Assembly: GCA_965112155.1 (NCBI GenBank)
Contig: OZ218102.1
DNA: 64,000 nucleotides
Reading direction: 5' to 3' (one strand)
DNA from: Podarcis liolepis
Taxonomy: Eukaryota
The position numbers and the translations under genes were made by a program. The notes below the pieces were generated by a model. It made no database searches and was not told the DNA's origin. It saw only the letters and a list, made by a program, of their open reading frames with translations. This document shows positions 42,501-54,119 of this stretch, piece by piece; the first letter of the stretch is position 1; each line of letters begins with the position of its first letter.

Positions 42501-42811
42501 TCAGGAAACAAAAGGGCACTGGGGGGAAATCAGAATGTTCATATTTCCCCCCCAATAAATACTTTTCTGTTTTCTTCCCAATAATCATTTATCTGTGTCT
42601 AATATGCTAATATTGGAGTAAATATTAAATAATGTCCAGTGCAGCCCTAAATAGGAATACAATAGCCGTCTCAAGCATGGTGCCCTTGAGATATTTTGGA
42701 CTAAAACTCCCACTACAAAACATCTGGAGGAGGCATCACATTTGAAGAAGAGACATGACAGCTTGATCTTGCCTGTTTTACTTGCTATTTTATTTTATTT
42801 TAATCTTCAAG

Positions 42812-43030
42812 ATTTCTGGATGGCAAACTCCTGGATATCAATAAAGAATTCCAGCCATACCTTGGGCAAGGAGGACGTATTTTGGAGATCCGCACTCCAG
42901 ATGTGGTGGCCAATGTCAAGAAGCAGGCCCAAGCCGTAGGCTACACAGAAGGGGCCTTGCTGGCTCTGGCTGTCATCATCATCCTTTGCTGCATGCCTGC
43001 TATTTTAATAGTTATGGTCAGCTACAAACA
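42812..43030 (+). CDS. PCDH15: PCDH15 transmembrane exon
   Basis: ttttaatcttcaAG|...|GTaagt; 219 nt phase 2 to 2; [72 protein letters not shown](Q), with hydrophobic TM helix. Confidence 0.97.
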
Positions 43031-43761
43031 GTAAGTATGCCAGCACTCTGTATACATCAAAGATGAAAGACTGGGCTGTGCTTGGTGGCAGGTTTCATAC
43101 TTTTGGTCACATTTCCAGCATACACATTTGAGGAGCCCTTCCTATTTAGGCTCCAGGTTCCACTGTCTCTCTTCCTCACCAAGAGCATTTACAGAAAAAC
43201 TCAAGGCTCTACCCTCCTTGAAAACAGAGGCTCACTATTTGGGGGCAAGGCCCAGGACTAAAAGGTAGAAGATACACGTCGCAAATAAGGTTCCAGGTTT
43301 GTTCCCAAGACTTTAGAAGAACTAACAATTCAGCCAAATGAGCTATGGGTTTCTATTCAGCATACATCAGCTGCCTTGTAGGTACCAAACCTTCTCCTTT
43401 TCTTCTCACACAACCTGATCACCCTTTCATCATGTTCTGAAAAAGGCCTCTCCCTTTCTGGTATGCTTCAAGGGATCATTAGTGCAGCAATCCAGTTTTT
43501 TTCCAGGGGCTGCAACATAGATTTTTTGCACCCCCTCCATCTTTCAGATTACTTCCATCCTGTGAGTTCTAAACTACTCTGTGTGATCCCTCCGAGGGAA
43601 GTGCTGGAGGTCAAAATGGGCCATTTCAGTGGTGGTTCCCTGCTTGTAGAATGCTCCTATGCCCTTTTAAAATGTGTGGGTTTTTTTGGGGGGGGGAGAG
43701 GTTATTGGGTTGTTTTTATTTTGATTATATATTTTGTGGTTTTATATTTTGATTTTGTTCT

Positions 43762-43830
43762 GTGAACTGCCCCGAGACCTCCAGGTATAGAGTGCTGTAT
43801 GAATTCAATAAATAATAATAACAATAATAA
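43762..43830 (+). mobile_element. L2-like LINE 3' end
   Basis: gtgaactgccccgagacc...gtatagagtgctgtatgaattcaataaataataa; similar ends at 26323-26383 and 20980-21046 (the latter with an (ATC)n tail). Confidence 0.6.
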
Positions 43831-44129
43831 TTTTAGACACCAGGCAAAAAATGTTTCCTTTTACCCAGGCTTTTGGCCCCTAATTTGGAATGTTTTAGGT
43901 GTTTGTTGTTGTTAGTATTGTGGCTACTGTTATTTATTAAATCTATGTACCACCCTTCAACAGAGGACCATAGGAAGGTTTACAATATGAAAACACAAGG
44001 ATACATACCATAGTAACAACCAAAAGCAATAACCCTCCCCCACCACTAGCACATTTAAAAGGCCATAGATAATTTAAATTTAAAAAATCCTTCCAGTAGC
44101 ACCTTAAAGACCAACTAAGTTAGTTCTTG

Positions 44130-44167
44130 GGATGAGCTTTCGTGTGCAAGCACACTTCTTCAGATAC
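44130..44167 (-). ncRNA. Second hammerhead motif copy (stem I mismatch)
   Basis: Reverse complement reads GUAUCUGAAGAAGUGUGCUUGCACACGAAAGCUCAUCC; core intact, AUAC changed to AUCC breaks one stem I pair. Confidence 0.7.
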
Positions 44168-44554
44168 ACTGAAACAGAAGTTGCCAGATCCTTCTATATA
44201 GTGAGAAGGTGGGGAGGGGTATTACTCAGAAGGGTGGTGGGAATGGGAGATTGGCAGATAGCTGAGATGAGCCTGTTGGCGACTCTTAACGACTGTAATA
44301 GGTCTTACAGGAAAAGGCAAGGGGTGAGAAGGTGAGAAATGGCTTAGTCATGTATAATGAGATAAGAATCCAGTGTCTTTGTTCAGACCAGGTCTCACCC
44401 CTTGCCTTTTCCTGTAAGACCTATTACAGTCGTTAAGAGTCGTCAATAGGCTCATCTCAGCTATCTGCCAATCTCCCATTCCCACCACCCTTCTGAGTAA
44501 TACCCCTCCCCACCTTCTCACTATATAGAAGGATCTGGCAACTTCTGTTTCAGT

Positions 44555-44592
44555 GTATCTGAAGAAGTGTGCATGCACACGAAAGCTCATAC
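44555..44592 (+). ncRNA. Minimal type I hammerhead ribozyme motif (PLE-type)
   Basis: GUAU-CUGAAGA-A-GUGUG-CAUG-CACAC-GAAA-GC-UC-AUAC: catalytic boxes, 5-bp stem II, 4-bp stem I, palindromic AGCU in place of stem III. Confidence 0.8.
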
Positions 44593-47188
44593 CAAGAACT
44601 AACTTAGTTGGTCTTTAAGGTGCTACTGGAAGGAATTTTTTTATTTTGACTATGGCAGACCAACATGGCTACCTATCTGTAAATAGATAATTTAATTAGC
44701 CAAAGGCCTGGGGGGAAGGATGTTAGGGATCCAGACATTCTTCCCTGGAAAAAGCATTCCACAACCAGGGAGCCACCATGGAAAAGGCCCATTTTTGTAT
44801 TGCCACCCTCCAGATCTCTTTTAATGGAGTAGGATGTGTTCAACCTGCTTTTTGCATGTGTGGATTCTTAAGTTTTTGATTTATTTTGGCTTTTATACCT
44901 GGCTTTAACGTTTGTATTTTGAACTATTTTGTTGCATTACAAAGTTTGTCAGTTGCTTCATGCCTCTTTTGTGAAAGAGCAACTAATAAGATTTAGTAAG
45001 ATTAATAAGGATAAAAATAAGAATACCTTGATGGTTTTTAAAGCCATATTCAATAGTACTCCTGTGTACCTGTCACCTGTGATCTGTACTAAAATAATAA
45101 GGAAATATGTGTATTTTCCTCTTCTCCTAAGGTTTTGCTATGCTTTAATCACCAAATATCAAAGCTAGCAAAATAACTATTCAAGTTAATGCAAGAATTA
45201 AAGCCAAATGAACATAACCGTCATCATTGGAGCACATAAAATGGAAACATTAAGAATTGCTTTATATTAAAATTGTGTGTGTGTGTCATAGTTACATTTT
45301 TCAATACTTTCCAGGCCACTGATCAGCTTAATATTCAATGAATTAATTTTTGCAGATTGTAAAAAGCACAGTAAAGTTAAATGAATTTTACACTACTTGT
45401 TTTCCAGGGTGAAATAACAGTGTTGCAGCACTGCTCAGTACCTCCTTGTATAGTTTGCAAATAACCCCAAAAAGTATTGCTGCTCATTTCTATTAGGTGG
45501 CACCTCTGAAATTTTGGTATCCTGTACTGAAGAATAAATCAATGGTGAACCACAAATTATGAATTAATGAAAGTAGAGTGGCACATTTTAAATGGCCCTC
45601 AAAATGGAGAACAGCCTTGCTATTATTTTTAATTTCCTTTATATTATATCTATAATTTGAATTCAGAAAGTAATTGTAAGACTTATTTTTTCGTCTCCTA
45701 ACATTTGAAAGCAACAACTGTAGTTGGAATTGCTGTTTTAATCACTGGGGTTTTTTGTTTTTAAAAAAAACAACAAAAAAATACCAAACAATCAAAACAT
45801 TCCAAATACCACATTGAGAGAGACAAAATACATAAGTGACCCACACGTCCCCATTACACACTGGAAATAATATATCTATAAATGCCAAACATATAGGATT
45901 GATTACAGCAACAGATTTGTGAAGTTAACCACAGCCATCTTTAAATATTAGAGATGATCAGTGACATGATGGCTAAATGAAGAAAATCCAGAATATCAAT
46001 ATAAAGTTCAGAATAACATAACTCTACAAAACAAAAAGTGAATGTGTTTTAGGTTCTTCTTGTGAGGAATTAATGATAGAAATTAAGATAGACCAGCTAT
46101 AAAATGTATCACTGATAATGTCGACTCTAACTACTCTGCAGTGTTGTGCTAGTTTGTTAACAGGCACTGTCTTCCAAACCTATCATGCCAGTTTTTCATA
46201 GTTAACAAGTGACCACTTCTCCACAAGACTGCAATCTCCATCTGGGCTGCTTTCAGGAAATTTATTATTAACGACTTAAACAAAACATTGGCTTTTGTAG
46301 ACTGTCTTTAGCCAGTGAAATTCTTCGTGCAAATCACATTATTACAATGATTTTTTTTTAAAAAACAAAACCTTAAGTAATAAATTGACAACTGCAAAGC
46401 ATGACCCATTCCCTGCTGGAAATTCCATAGGGCAACTTGAAGACCTTTGCATGCCTTCTTAGCCCTAAGCCCAGTGCACCAGTAAACTATTTGCTTGCAC
46501 ACCACAATAAATCGAACTATGGCTTCGTAGGACTACATGAACATAGAGGCTCCCAGAGAGGAGCTTGCAGCCACTTTGCTCTTCCACAATCCTTAGCTGA
46601 GTGTGTCATGGCAGTAAAGCCAAGGTTTTACTTAGTGTGTCATCTAAATCTACAGTTGGGGTTAAGCTCTTTCTTCCTTAACCACGAACAGTGGCCAATT
46701 TACATGTGATTGTTTAAAAGGAAAAAAGCTTGCTGTTTTATTTTAAAGAGAGGGCATTTATATGACACACCAGCTGCTGTCTCAGAAGATACCGTACTTT
46801 AACTCCTATATGAGAATGGTGGTTCTTCTCTTAAGATGGTGTTTTGTCATATGTGGTTTTCCTGGGTATAGTAAAATGCTTAATTTAATTTGCATTGCCT
46901 GATCAGTGATGCCTGTTTAGTTTATTAATTGACTCCTTAAGACTGTAGTACTATACACATTTACTTGGGAGTAAATCCCATTGAAATCAACAGGGTCTAC
47001 TTCTGAGCAGACCTTTATATGATTGCACTGTTAACTGACTAACCCATTAATGTTTTAGCCCTAATGTGATTTGTACAGTTAAATTTAATGCCTTATGAAA
47101 TTTATTAGATTTCACAATGTGAATTATTTTTACTAAGTGAAACTCACAACTTTTGTTCTCTGTTTTATCACTCTGCATAACAAAACAG

Positions 47189-47197: not shown

Positions 47198-48178
47198 GTA
47201 AGTATTTATTTTTGGCCTTGTTTCAAATGCATTACATAGGATAAATAAATATCACTGGGGATTGTGGCCGGAGGAGAGGGAGGGTGGCCGAGGAAAAATC
47301 CCAAGGGCCAGATGGAAAGAACTTGAGGGATACATTCTGCCCCCAGATTTTCCACCCTTTGGCTATTGCATGTTGAAAGCAGAGATCATATTGAAATACA
47401 GGTCTCCATATGCCACTTTTAATATTGGCTGAAGTATTCCTACCAAAAGCAATAAAGTTAAACTATGAAAATGGCATATATCAGAGTATGCCTAGATTTT
47501 AAAAGAGACAGGATAATTATATAGCCTGTATAGTGTAAGATGAGAGTTATCAAGATAGATTGATAAATAGATAGATAGATGTCGTGTTGTACTGCATGGT
47601 GTGTTTCTGTGTGTAAAGGAAGTGCATTTCCTTAAAAACTGCTGAATCTTGAACATGGCTAGGAATGACAGAGGAATGAATAGTATAATCGCCTTAAGAA
47701 TAAATCCCGGTGTATTTTCCTAACACAGACTAATCAATACATGGATTGTTAGGTCAGCAGTAACACACTGAGATAATCTGGTTTTATCTGCTCTGTAACA
47801 CAAATGCAGCATCTTTTCTTAAATTTACTTGGAAATAAGCTCCATTGAAAACATCATTCGCTTTCATGTTTAGGTATCTCAGGTATCCATTTCCAAGAGT
47901 GAGAGGTGATATTTAAAACTCTTTCAGAACTCTCACTAAAGGATATTTTATCATAACTTGAGTTGCATACAGTATGTCAGAAGCAAGTAAAAAAAAAAGT
48001 CAGGAGCCAGATTTTATTCTGCCATGTGGTGCATTCAAATTCTCTTCTTAGTATTGTCACCAATCACGAGGTGAAAAACTGCAACAAATATCCCTTTGGG
48101 GGCTGTTGCGGCTGATGTGTTCTTGGTGGGAGACCATGTGTGACACTCTCCATTTCCTTTCCATGTGACTCACCAAAG

Positions 48179-48289
48179 GAGACAAGCAGAATGTGCAAAG
48201 ACGGCTCGAATCCAGATGGCCTTACCAGCTGGCAAACCAGCAAGCACTCCTGCCCATAATCTCTATGAAGAACTCGGCGACAGCACCAT
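48179..48289 (+). CDS. PCDH15: PCDH15 juxtamembrane cytoplasmic common-region exon
   Basis: caccaaAG|...|GTAAGT; 111 nt phase 2 to 2; [36 protein letters not shown](M/I). Confidence 0.95.
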
Positions 48290-51272
48290 GTAAGTCCTCA
48301 GTGATGTTTGCGGTTTAAAATACTAGCAATTCAAAGTATAATTCTGATGCTTCAGAAATTACAGTTGACATTGCTGTGTAAATTCAAGAACAGGGAAGAA
48401 TTAACAAGCCACTCATGGTGGCTTAAACATCAAGGTTATGATCTATGATGGGGAAATGTTTTAAGCCTAGGGGCCACATTCCAACATGATCAACCTTCCA
48501 GACAGCCAAATACCAGTGGTGGGCAGAGCCAAAGGCAAAAATGTCCAAACCAACAGGTGTAACCCTTACCTTTGTACAGTGCTTTTTGTTTCTAGAAAAA
48601 TAGGTGCCAGTACTCACCATGATGTGGTTACTGTAAATGCCACACTTTTTAACAACAACAACGCGATGCCAGTACTGTGTACCCTTGAGTTCCCCCAAAT
48701 GAAAGAAAAGGCACTGCTTTTGTACAATAGGCAACAGGCTAGCCATGTAAAAGACAGGTTTCTGTGTTCCCCACCCACACTTTTCCCCACCCAAGCAAAC
48801 AAGAGATGTTATCTCAGTTTGGTAACACATCACAGACCAGGATCAATGAAAGACATGATATTATATATGAAAATGTGGTTTATAAATATTTAAACAAGAA
48901 ATAAATGTGACCTGGGGAAGATCCCGAGGGTGCATAGAGATCCATGGAGGGCCACATTCAGTCCCTGAAGTTGAGGTTGCAAAATGGCTTGGTCATAGCA
49001 ATGTTGGTCAATTCAGCATTGATTGTTTCTGGAACACATTTGAGGCCCAAGGTTACTCTGATTATACTGTCAACTGTGGTAAGAGATGCTATTACATCAA
49101 ACAATGCACATTTTTGCCCTTGTTCTTCTGGTAAGTCTTATAATCTAGTCCATGTAAACGTCTTTATGATGCCCCCCCCTTTTTTAACATAGGAAGAGTG
49201 TTTTCATTTGCTCGTTTGTTTAAATACAAGGCAATTATGAGAAGGATAAGTTTGCTCAGGGTTACTGGTGCCAGTTGCACCCAGGGAAAATGTATCTCAA
49301 ATAGCATCATATAATTTTCTCCAAAGCATTTTTTTAAAAAACCACTTTAACAACATGTTTTACAACAGCGTATCATTTCAGAAATAGTTTACAGCTTTTA
49401 AATGCTGGGCATGATCCAGCATTCAGTATCATCAATAGTGAGTTGGCTGTAGAAGCCTCCATGTGTGGGCATACCTGGGCAGCAATCCATGCCTTGGCAA
49501 TATCATTTTTTGCTACTATACCTTTTTTTCATGATCCGCAGCTTATTGGGTCTGGGCTACCCCTTCTGTGCAGATTATTCCTGCTTAGAGCTATGGTGAG
49601 AAGAGACAAGCTATGGTGGGAAGATTGCCCAGTCAGATCCTGTGCCAAGAAGGGTTGTTGCACCAATTTCTAGGAGTCACCACATCCTCGGACAATTGGA
49701 ATGGGGGAGATTGATAGCCCATGAGCTTTGTGGGTCCTAGCATTTCTCACAGGTCACTGTATCCCGAGTGACATGCCAGTTAATCTGACTTTCAGGTATC
49801 AGCAAGAGTCAAGGGTTGGTTATCAAGGCCCAGGGAAGTTGCCAGCCTAGGATAGAAAGATAGAAAGTGTGGTCAGAGCCAGGTCAAGTTCTAGGGAAGG
49901 GAGCTCAGGATCTGAGGGAGCAGAGCCAGTGATGTCATCAGAGTGGAGACAAAACAAGTTAAATCTGGAGGAAGCAAAATATGTCACAGCACCAGGATTC
50001 TGTACTGCTGCTTTCACTGACACGCTACTCACACTATGAAGCTGGTTCTGACACCAGGGTTTTATGGCGTAGAGTCAATCCACCATGGGGTCAGCTGTAA
50101 ATGATGGAAGTGATATTCAAGCAGGCTGGTATTTCAACCAGAAAATTGCATTCTTGACATACAAAACTTGGAACGTCTAGCTTGCCCAGGAATTAGTGCA
50201 TGGGTGATGCAGGAGGTAATCTTCCATTATTTAGTATGTGGCCGGATAAGTCCATGGCCCTGTAAGGGATGTGTTGCCATCCACCTGTACCACAGCATAG
50301 GAAGCTCTCTCCTTCTAATGGGTTGTGATTGTAGCTATATTCTTCAGAACTTCCTTACCACCCCCGCACCTCATGCAGAAGTTCTGGATAGTGCTCAACA
50401 AAAAATTTAAGGAAAGTGTGTGGTCACCAGGTTTAGGGTCTGTACATTTATGAATAGCACATGTGAATGAATTAATCTGTTGTTCTTTTTCAAGAGAGTG
50501 TGTGTATGTGTTTTATTAACTTCTGCATTAAAGTGGAAATTGTACGAAAGGTTATCATCACTATACTGACACTTGCCCAGAAAATGTCATTACTTATGAC
50601 ATTTCATAACATTTCAGCCTGTTTAGTCCTTAAAAAGTATTGAGTGCAAAATCCCAGTAATGAGGGAGGGAGAGTTTCAAGAGGGAGGACAAGGTTGTCA
50701 CAGGGGGTGAGGAACATGGTATGCATGTACAGAAGTTCTAATGTCCAGATATAGATCGGATAGAGCTCAAAATCCAAAGAGTCCAAAATCCAGCCCAGCA
50801 CTCTATGCAGCACTGGGAGCCAATTATGAAGATGGCAGTGGAATGAAATTGTTTTTAGAAATGGGACTTACTTCAGAAAACCTGCTGTGCCCAGAGAAGA
50901 TACTGAGAGACTTTGTGGATTAAGAACGCCTTGCTTTGCTTAACTGTGTTGTATTTAAACCTCATCGGTGAAATTGTTTTTGTGCAAAACAATAACTTGT
51001 ATCACTTCAGTAACTTCTTCAACTTGAAATTGAAGTGCCAGTGCTTCTGTGATCTCTCCAAATTTAAATGATAGGTGCTCTGAAGAGGACATCTGCTTCT
51101 AATTGCTTTTCTTATTTTCCCCGTATCACTCATTCTACTTGTTTTCTCTTGTTTTCTCATTGTTGGCTTTGGATTTACTCATAATATACACAACTATATA
51201 CATGAACTAACATTTCATTTCATTTCATTTCATGTCTCATTTCTTCCTTTTCCTCTGTCTTTGGACACATAG

Positions 51273-51278: not shown

Positions 51279-52708
51279 GTAAGTAAACTCAAACCATTGC
51301 GGGTAATATTGTAGCAGATGGGGAAAGTAGTTGATTTTTGTTACTGAGAATTGCAATTATTTCCTAGTAATGTAGTAACTGGAAGACATTTATTTCTAAA
51401 TCATTCAATGTACTACGTTCCAAAGGGAAGTAGGGCTAAGGAACTGAAAGCACTGTCATTGCACTGCGTGTGAAGACATTTCTGGTGAGTAGATTCTATC
51501 CCCTTCAGCTTGTTGGCACCTCTAAAATTTAGAGGCTGCAACCTGAAAATGTGCATTTACTGGAAGGCTCATTAACGCCAATGGGACTGATCGCTATTGA
51601 GCAGCTTAAGCTTTGCAATCATCAAATCACCAAAGCGTAGCCTTTTCATTTCACCATGTCTGCAGTTAGGCTAAGCCAAAATGGATTTGAGTTATAGGGA
51701 GCATAGAACATAGCCTGCCAACCACAGCTCCTGAAAAGCGCCTTGTTAGTGAAGTGAGCAGAGCTTGCACAGGAGTATCGCTTAGTGGGTTGACTCATTT
51801 AAATACAATTTCCATTTGCTCTTGCAAGCAGACCACATGGCACAACTGCTATGGGGATGCCTCTGAGAAGTGACTCATCCCACACTAACCCCGTAATCTT
51901 ACAACTACTCACCATATCAACACAGCAATAGACTCCTGATCCCACTAGGAATATGAAGCATATGCACAGCATGTTACCATAAATCCATGATGTTTCAGAT
52001 AGAACAGGGATTAACAGCTGTTTTGGTGACCATAAGGACTGTTCTAGCCCATTTGCAACACAAACATCCCAGTCCAGACCCTTATGTTTACAATAATTTA
52101 CAACTGAGTTCTTATTCATATAGGTGCCCCTATGCATATTGACTCGAGGGGCAGCTCTCAACATGAACCTGTCTCCTCCATTCAGATGAATGGTAAAGCC
52201 CTTTCTGTGGCTGAGTCCATGTGTACTTCAGGTCTCTGAAGCCAAAAGAAAGCACTAGACTGGGAACTTCCCTCACAATCTACTGTCCTGTCATTTTTAT
52301 TTCTTTGATCCCCACTTACTATAAGCAAGAACCTAGACACCATGTGCACTCCTTGAAATAGATCTCATACACAATGCCTCTTTGTCATGGCTTTTGAGCA
52401 TTCAGGAGAAAATTCAGATTTATAAAAAAGCATTAGCTTTTGAAAGGCATTTGTTTAAATTAACAGTTTACCTTATTTGCCTTCCCTTGGTAAGAGAAGT
52501 GAACCACTTCCCTTAGTAAATAAATAAATGTCTTGTGTTTGTAGCTTAATTACATATAGATTAATTACATGTAGCTCTAGATTCTTAGATATCCTTAGAA
52601 AGCTTTAGACGTCACTGTTTTTTGTTCACAGCATTCAGATTATATTTTCTCATTCAAATCAATGTCCATGCATGCTTCCTTACCTGTGATTATTTTCTTT
52701 CTTTCAAG

Positions 52709-54119
52709 TCTTTTTCTTCTCTATCAATTTCAACAAAGCAGGGGAAAAAAGTCAGTCTTCGAAGAAGGGGACCGTCAGAGGGCTATAAGCAGCTTTGCCT
52801 CTCGTGCTATTGAGGCCCACAAGCAATCTAATATCAATGGAACATTGAACAATAACTTCCCCAAATCTGCAAGTAATGTGACGCTTTTGTCTGATGAGAA
52901 CCCATTGACAACTCAGAACCCTCTGTACATGGAGGGTGCGACCCAGGGTTCTGCTTATTCTGGGGTCCTGCCAGAGAGAAAAGATTTTCTGTCCCCCTTT
53001 TCTCCCAGAAAGTTAGCCTTGAAAAATTCTCTGTTGGGATGGCCTTCGGGAAGCATTCATCGGGCGTGGACTCTACCAACTCGTCTTCCCAGAAGACACC
53101 TTTCTGATGCTTTGAGTAGGGCAGTCATTATGGACCCAGTTCAGTGGGAGCAGGAGAGAATCAGGGCAGAGAAGGAAAGGGCAGGGATTCAGCACCGCAG
53201 AGCCGACGTTGGCAGTCCAGTCTTCAAAAAGATCATTGGCACAAAGATATCAGTCAAAGAGAAAGCAAGGCAGTTTGAACAGCAAGCCCTGCAGGAAATG
53301 AAACAAGTGAGATCCCGAGATATGAAAAGTTTGCGTTCACCGACACATAGCAGCTGCACTCAGGATGGAGAGAGCTCACTTGAGTTGTCCACCGAAAGCC
53401 TCCTTCCATCTCCTGTCCATCTCTCACCTTCTTTTTCCTCCCTCAGTCCTCACTCTGAGGTTATTGAACTCGACACGTCTACTATACCTTCTGTGATCAT
53501 AACTCACCATGATGCTCCTGAACGTTTGTCCCCTCCACCAATTCACAAGCCCATTCCTCCTTCCTTTAGGATCAAAATTCCAGCTCGCCAAAATCTTTTA
53601 CCCTGTCAACCTACAGTGGAAGCAATGGAAATCATTCCTGATCCACCCAAAACCCCTCCACCGCCTCCACCACCTCCGTCTCCCCTCCCCCCACCACCAA
53701 CTCCTCCCCCGTTGCCACTTCCATTTCCTTCCCCTCCTCCCAGCCTTTCCTTATCGTCTTCTTCTTCTACTCTAAGCACTCAGCTCCTCTCCCCTGTAAA
53801 ACACACCAAGTCACCCTCCAAACAAGAAGTGGTCTGCATCCCTGATTTACCTGACCCTCCTCGCCGGGAGCTGAAGGGGATTCTTAAAAACATCCAGAAC
53901 TTAGCAGATATTGAAAAATCTGTGGCCAATATGTATAGTCAAATAGACAAAAACCACATCTTACCTAAGCACATCGCCAAGCTGAGGCCAGTTGCAACGC
54001 CAGAACCACCAAGTACACAAACGATGATTGAGACTGAGCACAGCCAGCAGAATGGAAACTTGAGCTGCATAGTGGAGGAACTTGAAAAAAGATTCCCATC
54101 GCAGTCCACTGCATTATGA
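52709..54119 (+). CDS. PCDH15: PCDH15 terminal exon, cytoplasmic domain CD1
   Basis: Within ORF 52662-54119; acceptor ttttctttctttcaAG| in phase 2; LFLLYQFQQSRG..., NPLY, polyproline tract, KGILK, EKSVANMYSQIDKN, ends QSTAL* (class I PDZ ligand; human CD1 recalled as ending QSTSL). Confidence 0.95.

Follow-up and report, generated by a model that had tools for sequence, protein, structure and literature searches.

Amniote introns hold hammerhead ribozymes of the HH9/HH10 type, which occur in few copies, are conserved, and have a full helix III. For the minimal hammerheads of Penelope-like elements (PLEs), published work reports pairs on opposite strands at a distance of 100 to 700 bp (PMC4209133), with no detectable cleavage by single motifs and little by dimers (PMC4209133; PMC6765202). 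The hammerhead of the lizard Poseidon element is reported to have cut only when the protein of the element was added; cleavage was dispensable for insertion, and no Anolis RNA-seq read ended at the cut site (PMC11167929). PLE insertions with an inverted pLTR, a one-sided tail, a short duplication, and a TATA box plus initiator are described in an earlier study, in which head-to-head was the commonest arrangement (PMC3846280). The same layout is reported for Naiad elements, which lack canonical hammerheads; that source also gives a CX2-5CxxC linker between the reverse transcriptase (RT) and the endonuclease as a mark of Neptune and Nematis elements (PMC8557442).

We analyzed a stretch of 64,000 nt from Podarcis liolepis (assembly GCA_965112155.1, contig OZ218102.1; referred to here as the window), which contains a hammerhead motif within an intron of PCDH15. 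The motif is carried as a passenger by a Penelope-like retroelement that is present in many copies. The locus is very probably a truncated head-to-head PLE insertion, likely a recent one, with the motif as a likely idle passenger and the antisense arm as a likely by-product of integration. The features on which this reading is based are as follows.

42810 to 43031, plus strand: exon of PCDH15 that precedes the host intron, 97% to PCDH15 proteins in tblastn
44065 to 44077, no strand: left copy of the 13-bp target-site duplication, identical to 44683-44695
44078 to 44395, minus strand: left arm, a 5'-truncated PLE copy (ORF end plus pLTR) with 94% identity over 320 nt to the tandem parent in L031
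44130 to 44167, minus strand: second hammerhead copy, differing at 2 of 38 nt and represented on plus-strand RNA by its complement, the antisense copy
44348 to 44395, minus strand: end of the parent RT-endonuclease ORF (15 codons plus stop), aligned to the parent by blastn and tblastn
44393 to 44682, plus strand: right arm, a shorter 5'-truncated pLTR copy with a long 3' end and 97% identity over 286 nt to the parent
44522 to 44528, plus strand: TATA-like pLTR box, a putative promoter; genomic copies most often begin 31 nt downstream of it
44552 to 44553, plus strand: putative family transcription start, initiator-like, from the 5' ends of genomic arms; 2 to 3 nt before stem I
44555 to 44592, plus strand: minimal type I hammerhead motif, from sequence and folding; predicted cut after C44588
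44645 to 44682, plus strand: one-sided tail (~38 nt) with the first ATG of the parent ORF (44652), in the right arm only
44683 to 44695, no strand: right copy of the target-site duplication, identical to 44065-44077
48165 to 48290, plus strand: exon of PCDH15 that follows the host intron, with approximate limits (tblastn, 80 to 82%)

Protein and exon matches placed PCDH15 on the plus strand, as had been assumed in an earlier, sequence-only reading of the window, according to which the motif is sense to this gene. The insertion is located between the two exons listed above, with ~1.05 kb separating it from the first and 3.5 kb from the second. An exon at 21832 matches solved PCDH15 chains, and a 506-codon frame (52599-54119) has PCDH15 proteins as its best matches (81% to a Varanus protein). 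The frame represents the long exon for the cytoplasmic part, which is intact; downstream of the window, PCDH15 has additional alternative C-terminal exons (G000:C5:36834605-36842281). Elsewhere in the window, a tRNA-like sequence (4872-4962, plus strand; 38 bits in Rfam, with no anticodon assigned by ARAGORN) is probably a tRNA pseudogene or the head of a SINE.

The boxes, stems, AGCU palindrome, and cleavage position (C44588) that the sequence-only reading had assigned to the hammerhead were each found exactly where it had placed them. Stem I consists of 4 bp (44555-44558 with 44589-44592) and is followed by the CUGAAGA box (44559-44565) and a bulged A44566 at the 5' end of stem II. The latter stem has 5 bp (44567-44571 with 44576-44580) and a loop of 4 nt, and its G44567-C44580 pair is equivalent to G10.1-C11.1. 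Next to GAA (44581-44583; GAAA box, 44581-44584), a palindromic AGCU (44584-44587) replaces helix III, and C17 corresponds to 44588, with CUC (44586-44588) as the NUH triplet. The motif therefore has all of the characteristics of PLE minimal hammerheads (i.e., the boxes, the NUH triplet, a short helix I, a bulged helix II, the palindrome, and a position in the pLTR). A TATA-like box had been claimed ~30 nt upstream and starts at 44522, i.e., 33 nt before stem I. The assignment to a minimal type I hammerhead of a PLE pLTR, in sense to PCDH15, was likewise borne out, given that the motif lies in the pLTR of an element with RT and GIY-YIG domains (described below).

Folding of the 38-mer predicted pair probabilities of 0.64 to 0.73 for stem I and 0.97 to 0.98 for stem II. 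A strict descriptor (at least 5 pairs in stem II and 4 in stem I) matched the window once and none of 200 simulated windows (order-1 Markov versions of the window). No Rfam hammerhead model matched anywhere in the window at the gathering threshold, and none was present among the 11 matches obtained for 44000-44750 at E values up to 10; these were 10 models of miRNA-precursor hairpins and one lncRNA fragment, all below the gathering threshold. The miRNA-precursor matches were rejected as candidates, since they reflect no more than the long hairpin at this site.

Stem II and its loop (44567-44580) form a perfect 14-nt palindrome, owing to which two RNAs are predicted to pair at this site rather than via AGCU; the predicted dimer energy is -32.6 kcal/mol through the stem II palindrome and only -2.5 kcal/mol for the AGCU duplex. 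The loop II change of the left copy breaks this palindrome.

The head-to-head insertion is 605 bp long (44078-44682), and the 13-bp duplication at its borders is the longest of three flanking direct repeats of at least 7 nt. The left arm has a short 3' end (~+85 from the hammerhead core), and the right arm has a 3' end of the +118 to +130 class; the right arm aligns to the parent over 44393-44678, and many genomic copies match on to 44682. The inverted arms (44069-44329 and 44393-44653) are 96% complementary, in accordance with the earlier claim that the plus-strand motif is preceded by its near-perfect antisense; this order, antisense before sense, results on either strand from the head-to-head geometry. 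Between the arms is an unpaired loop (44330-44392; 63 nt) composed mostly of the ORF end of the parent; in other copies, this ORF end is likewise inverted and immediately precedes the arm. Because the loop holds the last 15 codons and stop of the parent, it can be attributed to the longer 5' extent of the left copy. The minus-strand hammerhead (44130-44167) carries one mismatch in stem I, as had been pointed out, together with a change in loop II that had gone unmentioned, while the sense copy (44555-44592) is intact and has the family sequence. The TATA box is intact in both arms. Overall, the insertion shows the inverted 5'-truncated copy, one-sided tail of 30 to 40 bp, and short target-site duplication (TSD) of endonuclease-positive PLE insertions.

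The surroundings of the insertion are themselves repetitive. A 43-nt inverted pair (86%; 43613-43655 and 44753-44795) brackets it. By read depth, 43927-44048 and 44720-44841 are repeats of low copy number, whereas 43683-43804 is repeated in very many copies. Based on the bracketing pair and the read depth, the insertion may sit inside older repeats.

The exact 38-nt motif is present in 9,879 genomic copies (4,999 and 4,880 on the two strands; reversed control, 0), and the right arm, used as a query, was found at at least 50 genomic places among the best-scored candidates. Three pLTRs are arranged in tandem on contig C4, ~3.0 kb apart. There, the L031 unit (4476-7256, minus strand; G000:C4:88.61-88.62 Mb) contains an open frame of 926 codons with RVT_1 (E, 9e-12) and GIY-YIG (E, 2e-5) matches. 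Residues 786 to 794 of this frame form a CX4CX2C linker, which conforms to the CX2-5CxxC motif of Neptune and suggests that the parent is a PLE of the Neptune/Nematis type. No named reference PLE protein was found among the 120 matches listed for the parent protein, and its closest named relatives among the matches listed were unnamed turtle products (60 to 74% identity). With its tandem pLTRs and one or more fully open frames of 926 codons, the family seems to have been active recently.

The frequency of the layout was determined in a census of 40 loci, covering the first listed motif matches on contig C1 (first 4.8 Mb). Head-to-head pairs were present in 19 of the 40 loci; the other 21 were not head to head by the criteria used, and some were complex. 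Both arms carried the whole motif in 8 of the 19 head-to-head loci, whereas one long and one short 3' end, as well as a flanking repeat of 9 to 16 bp, were each observed in 18. Among the first 100 listed matches, neighbors within 1 kb were in minus-then-plus order 14 times versus once in plus-then-minus order. We conclude that the head-to-head layout is a routine product of the family. The pairing of long with short ends (18 of 19) would fit the use of one start site per DNA strand. Most copies of the family span only ~90 to 130 nt, i.e., from the putative start to one of the two 3' ends.

The 5' ends of the copies were collected from an anchor sequence with 15,584 exact matches, placed 3' of the cut site so that 5' ends inside the motif could show. 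The sample consisted of 100 arms in 69 of 73 loci from 4.8 Mb of one contig. Arms starting at -11 to -3 from the core were the most numerous (41 of 100), with a mode at -6 (equivalent to 44553; 15 of 100), although chance matches can move a called arm end by a few bases. The remainder started at -2 to +24 (21 arms), at -39 to -12 (4 arms), or further upstream (34 arms), and none of the 100 sampled arms started at the cleavage site (+25 to +30). With the mode 31 nt downstream of the TATA box, we infer a TATA/initiator start at 44552-44553; the D. virilis promoter is TATA-less, unlike this one (PMC2377424). Position 44555 was a top loose-end place in all four sequencing runs. The start mode and the lack of sampled arms beginning at the cut suggest that uncleaved RNA serves as the template for insertion, and both agree with the Poseidon hammerhead results (PMC11167929). 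Splicing of an intron at the AG of 44552-44553 was considered as a source of the 5'-end peak and dismissed, as the sampled copies share no upstream exon. One case (L080) looks like a microhomology deletion.

We propose the following course of events for the locus. The RT/GIY-YIG protein of the element would have cut both DNA strands, 13 bp apart, and each DNA end would have primed cDNA on uncleaved element RNA, from internal start sites at ~+85 and ~+123; this two-end priming step is borrowed from published work on a different clade, Poseidon. Both cDNAs would have stopped early, and their 5' ends would have been joined near a 7-nt inverted match (44323-44329 and 44393-44399). In the PCDH15 pre-mRNA, the arms are predicted to fold into a hairpin of ~254 bp that buries the motif. 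Burial would abolish what is probably a negligible activity in any case, as long as neither a partner motif nor the element protein is present.

The full insertion is predicted to fold at about -504 to -516 kcal/mol (hairpin z-score, -47), and formation of the hammerhead within it would cost 61 kcal/mol. In an RNA starting at 44552, the predicted cost is 1.2 to 1.4 kcal/mol, with stem I probabilities of 0.56 to 0.87, so that the motif would be mostly free in RNA from the TATA start, as the sequence-only reading had anticipated for a transcript beginning in the right arm. The same reading had also proposed that the inverted arm locks the ribozyme and thereby protects the host pre-mRNA. The first half agrees with the folding, in which the motif is predicted to be fully paired; the second half, protection, is unsupported, though not directly refuted, and the layout is routine for the family. 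There is probably little to lock, because minimal hammerheads are described as inactive as monomers (PMC4209133) or without protein (PMC11167929). Searches of the literature on PLE hammerheads, made with wording other than that of the claim, returned no title or abstract opening that proposes a host-protecting inverted arm. From this analysis, the hammerhead is likely idle at the PCDH15 locus.

We surveyed PCDH15 over 360 kb of contig C5 plus the window and found three insertions of the family, i.e., that of the window and the following two.

G000:C5:36606766-36606939 (L051): small fold-back of the same family, with the whole motif antisense to PCDH15
C5:36528340-36528549 (L099): small fold-back of the same family upstream of the first coding exon, in sense and with a partial antisense arm

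No unpaired sense copy within PCDH15 was detected in the 360 kb and the window, a small sample with three family insertions. Over the 290-kb coding span, each of the two sense motifs found, one in the window and the other from a second family (C5:36762863), follows an antisense copy, and the sole other whole motif of the window's family (L051) is antisense to the gene. The second PLE family is represented in a PCDH15 intron by a fold-back of ~890 bp beside a TA run (L036; G000:C5:36762115-36763004) and also occurs at C5:36851838 (L110). Its hammerhead has a 6-bp stem II, the palindrome ACGU, and an ATG at the start of stem II, as in the Poseidon element PAc.

These observations have to be weighed against the possibility of a selection filter, under which sense motifs can cut the host pre-mRNA (with the element protein or a partner RNA) and self-locking fold-backs are tolerated in introns. 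The contrast between the predicted opening costs in the full insertion and in RNA from 44552 would suit such a filter, as would cleavage by the lizard PLE hammerhead upon addition of protein (PMC11167929). The pairing of both sense motifs in the PCDH15 coding span points the same way and, together with the fact that the intact copy is the sense one, counts against the by-product reading. However, fold-backs make up about half of the loci whatever their position, so two of two is often expected by chance and provides no test. The same layout in hammerhead-less clades (PMC8557442), the absence of sampled arms starting at the cut site, and the absence of cut-site reads in Anolis RNA-seq (PMC11167929) further argue against the filter, which we regard as improbable. 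Equally doubtful is its wider form, in which ~10,000 intact hammerheads would endanger pre-mRNAs in the presence of the element protein and selection would keep fold-backs and purge unpaired sense copies. If true, the hazard would entail a genome-wide bias in orientation and architecture and would constitute evidence for in vivo cleavage by PLE hammerheads; the family copies combined with gene annotation could test whether these motifs harm host transcripts.

Less probable still is an effect on the host through other features, i.e., two outward TATA promoters, a candidate splice acceptor (a pyrimidine run followed by AG at 44552-44553), or a long dsRNA stem subject to A-to-I editing or small-RNA production. 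The sampled copies have no recurrent spliced exon ahead of their 5' ends and the flanking exons are ~1.05 and 3.5 kb away, even though the intact TATA boxes of both arms, the clustering of family 5' ends 31 nt downstream, and the hairpin z-score of -47 are what this idea would call for. Long terminal inverted arms and a target duplication would also be expected of a nonautonomous element with inverted repeats, similar to a MITE or retrozyme and mobile as one invariant hairpin, but junction points and arm lengths vary between loci, the 44393/44395 junction is shared by no other locus among 30 examined, and the loop is parent ORF sequence, which leaves this origin with hardly any likelihood.

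The reading of the locus as a likely recent PLE insertion is also consistent with data from other organisms. Contigs of four sequencing runs were aligned to 43500-45300. A 1,212-nt contig of run X3 aligns from 44683, preceded by 16 unmatched letters, and contigs of runs X7 and X8 align up to 44077, followed by 17 and 14 unmatched letters, respectively. In these three other organisms, the alignments thus end, without exception, where the duplication would border the insertion. Judged by these ends, the site seems to be empty in the three organisms, and the insertion would accordingly be young. A contig of run X1 ends exactly at 44683, a weak hint at two alleles; a joint between 44035 and 44691 was set aside as evidence, as its short side comprises only 19 to 23 letters. 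The conserved orthologous site and low copy number of a host-domesticated hammerhead are not seen, given 9,879 copies and three of three empty-site signatures. As one among thousands of look-alike insertions and seemingly lineage restricted, the locus itself seems to matter little. The value of the family lies in its uniform copies, which record template starts (41 of 100 within -11 to -3) and two end classes; for a Neptune-type element, they support the Poseidon result of uncleaved RNA and two internal start sites (PMC11167929).

Finally, we compared the locus with the described systems. It shares a sense-oriented motif in a vertebrate intron with the HH9/HH10-type hammerheads, from which it differs in being multicopy, in having no helix III and no Rfam hammerhead match, and in its seeming absence from the same site in three other organisms. 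With PAc, the Poseidon element of Anolis carolinensis (PMC11167929), it has in common that the hammerhead is placed where pLTR and ORF meet, that the template is mainly uncleaved RNA, and that two 3' end classes define the tail; in contrast to PAc, the Podarcis parent has the CX4CX2C linker of the Neptune/Nematis type, and its first ATG follows the core by ~93 nt, whereas that of PAc lies where stem II begins. The Pen2a_Av units (PMC3846280) and those in Fig. 2 of PMC8557442 likewise consist of head-to-head, inverted 5'-truncated pLTRs with a short TSD, a one-sided tail of 30 to 40 bp, and a TATA box plus initiator-like motif in the pLTR, whereas only 15 ORF codons separate the Podarcis arms and the TSD is 13 bp instead of the 8 to 10 bp of the rotifer examples. 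The closest resemblance in the ribozyme itself is to the minimal hammerheads of metazoan PLE pLTRs, which, as described in PMC4209133, share with it the core boxes, 4-bp helix I, bulge before helix II, G10.1-C11.1 pair, palindromic 15.2-16.2, pLTR position, 3-kb tandems, opposite-strand pairs 100 to 700 bp apart, and occurrence in reptiles. Helix II has 5 bp in the Podarcis motif versus 7 to 8 bp in the Schistosoma examples of that study, and with 9,879 identical copies, the Podarcis family resembles the young D. virilis family in its great uniformity and differs from the variable families described there.
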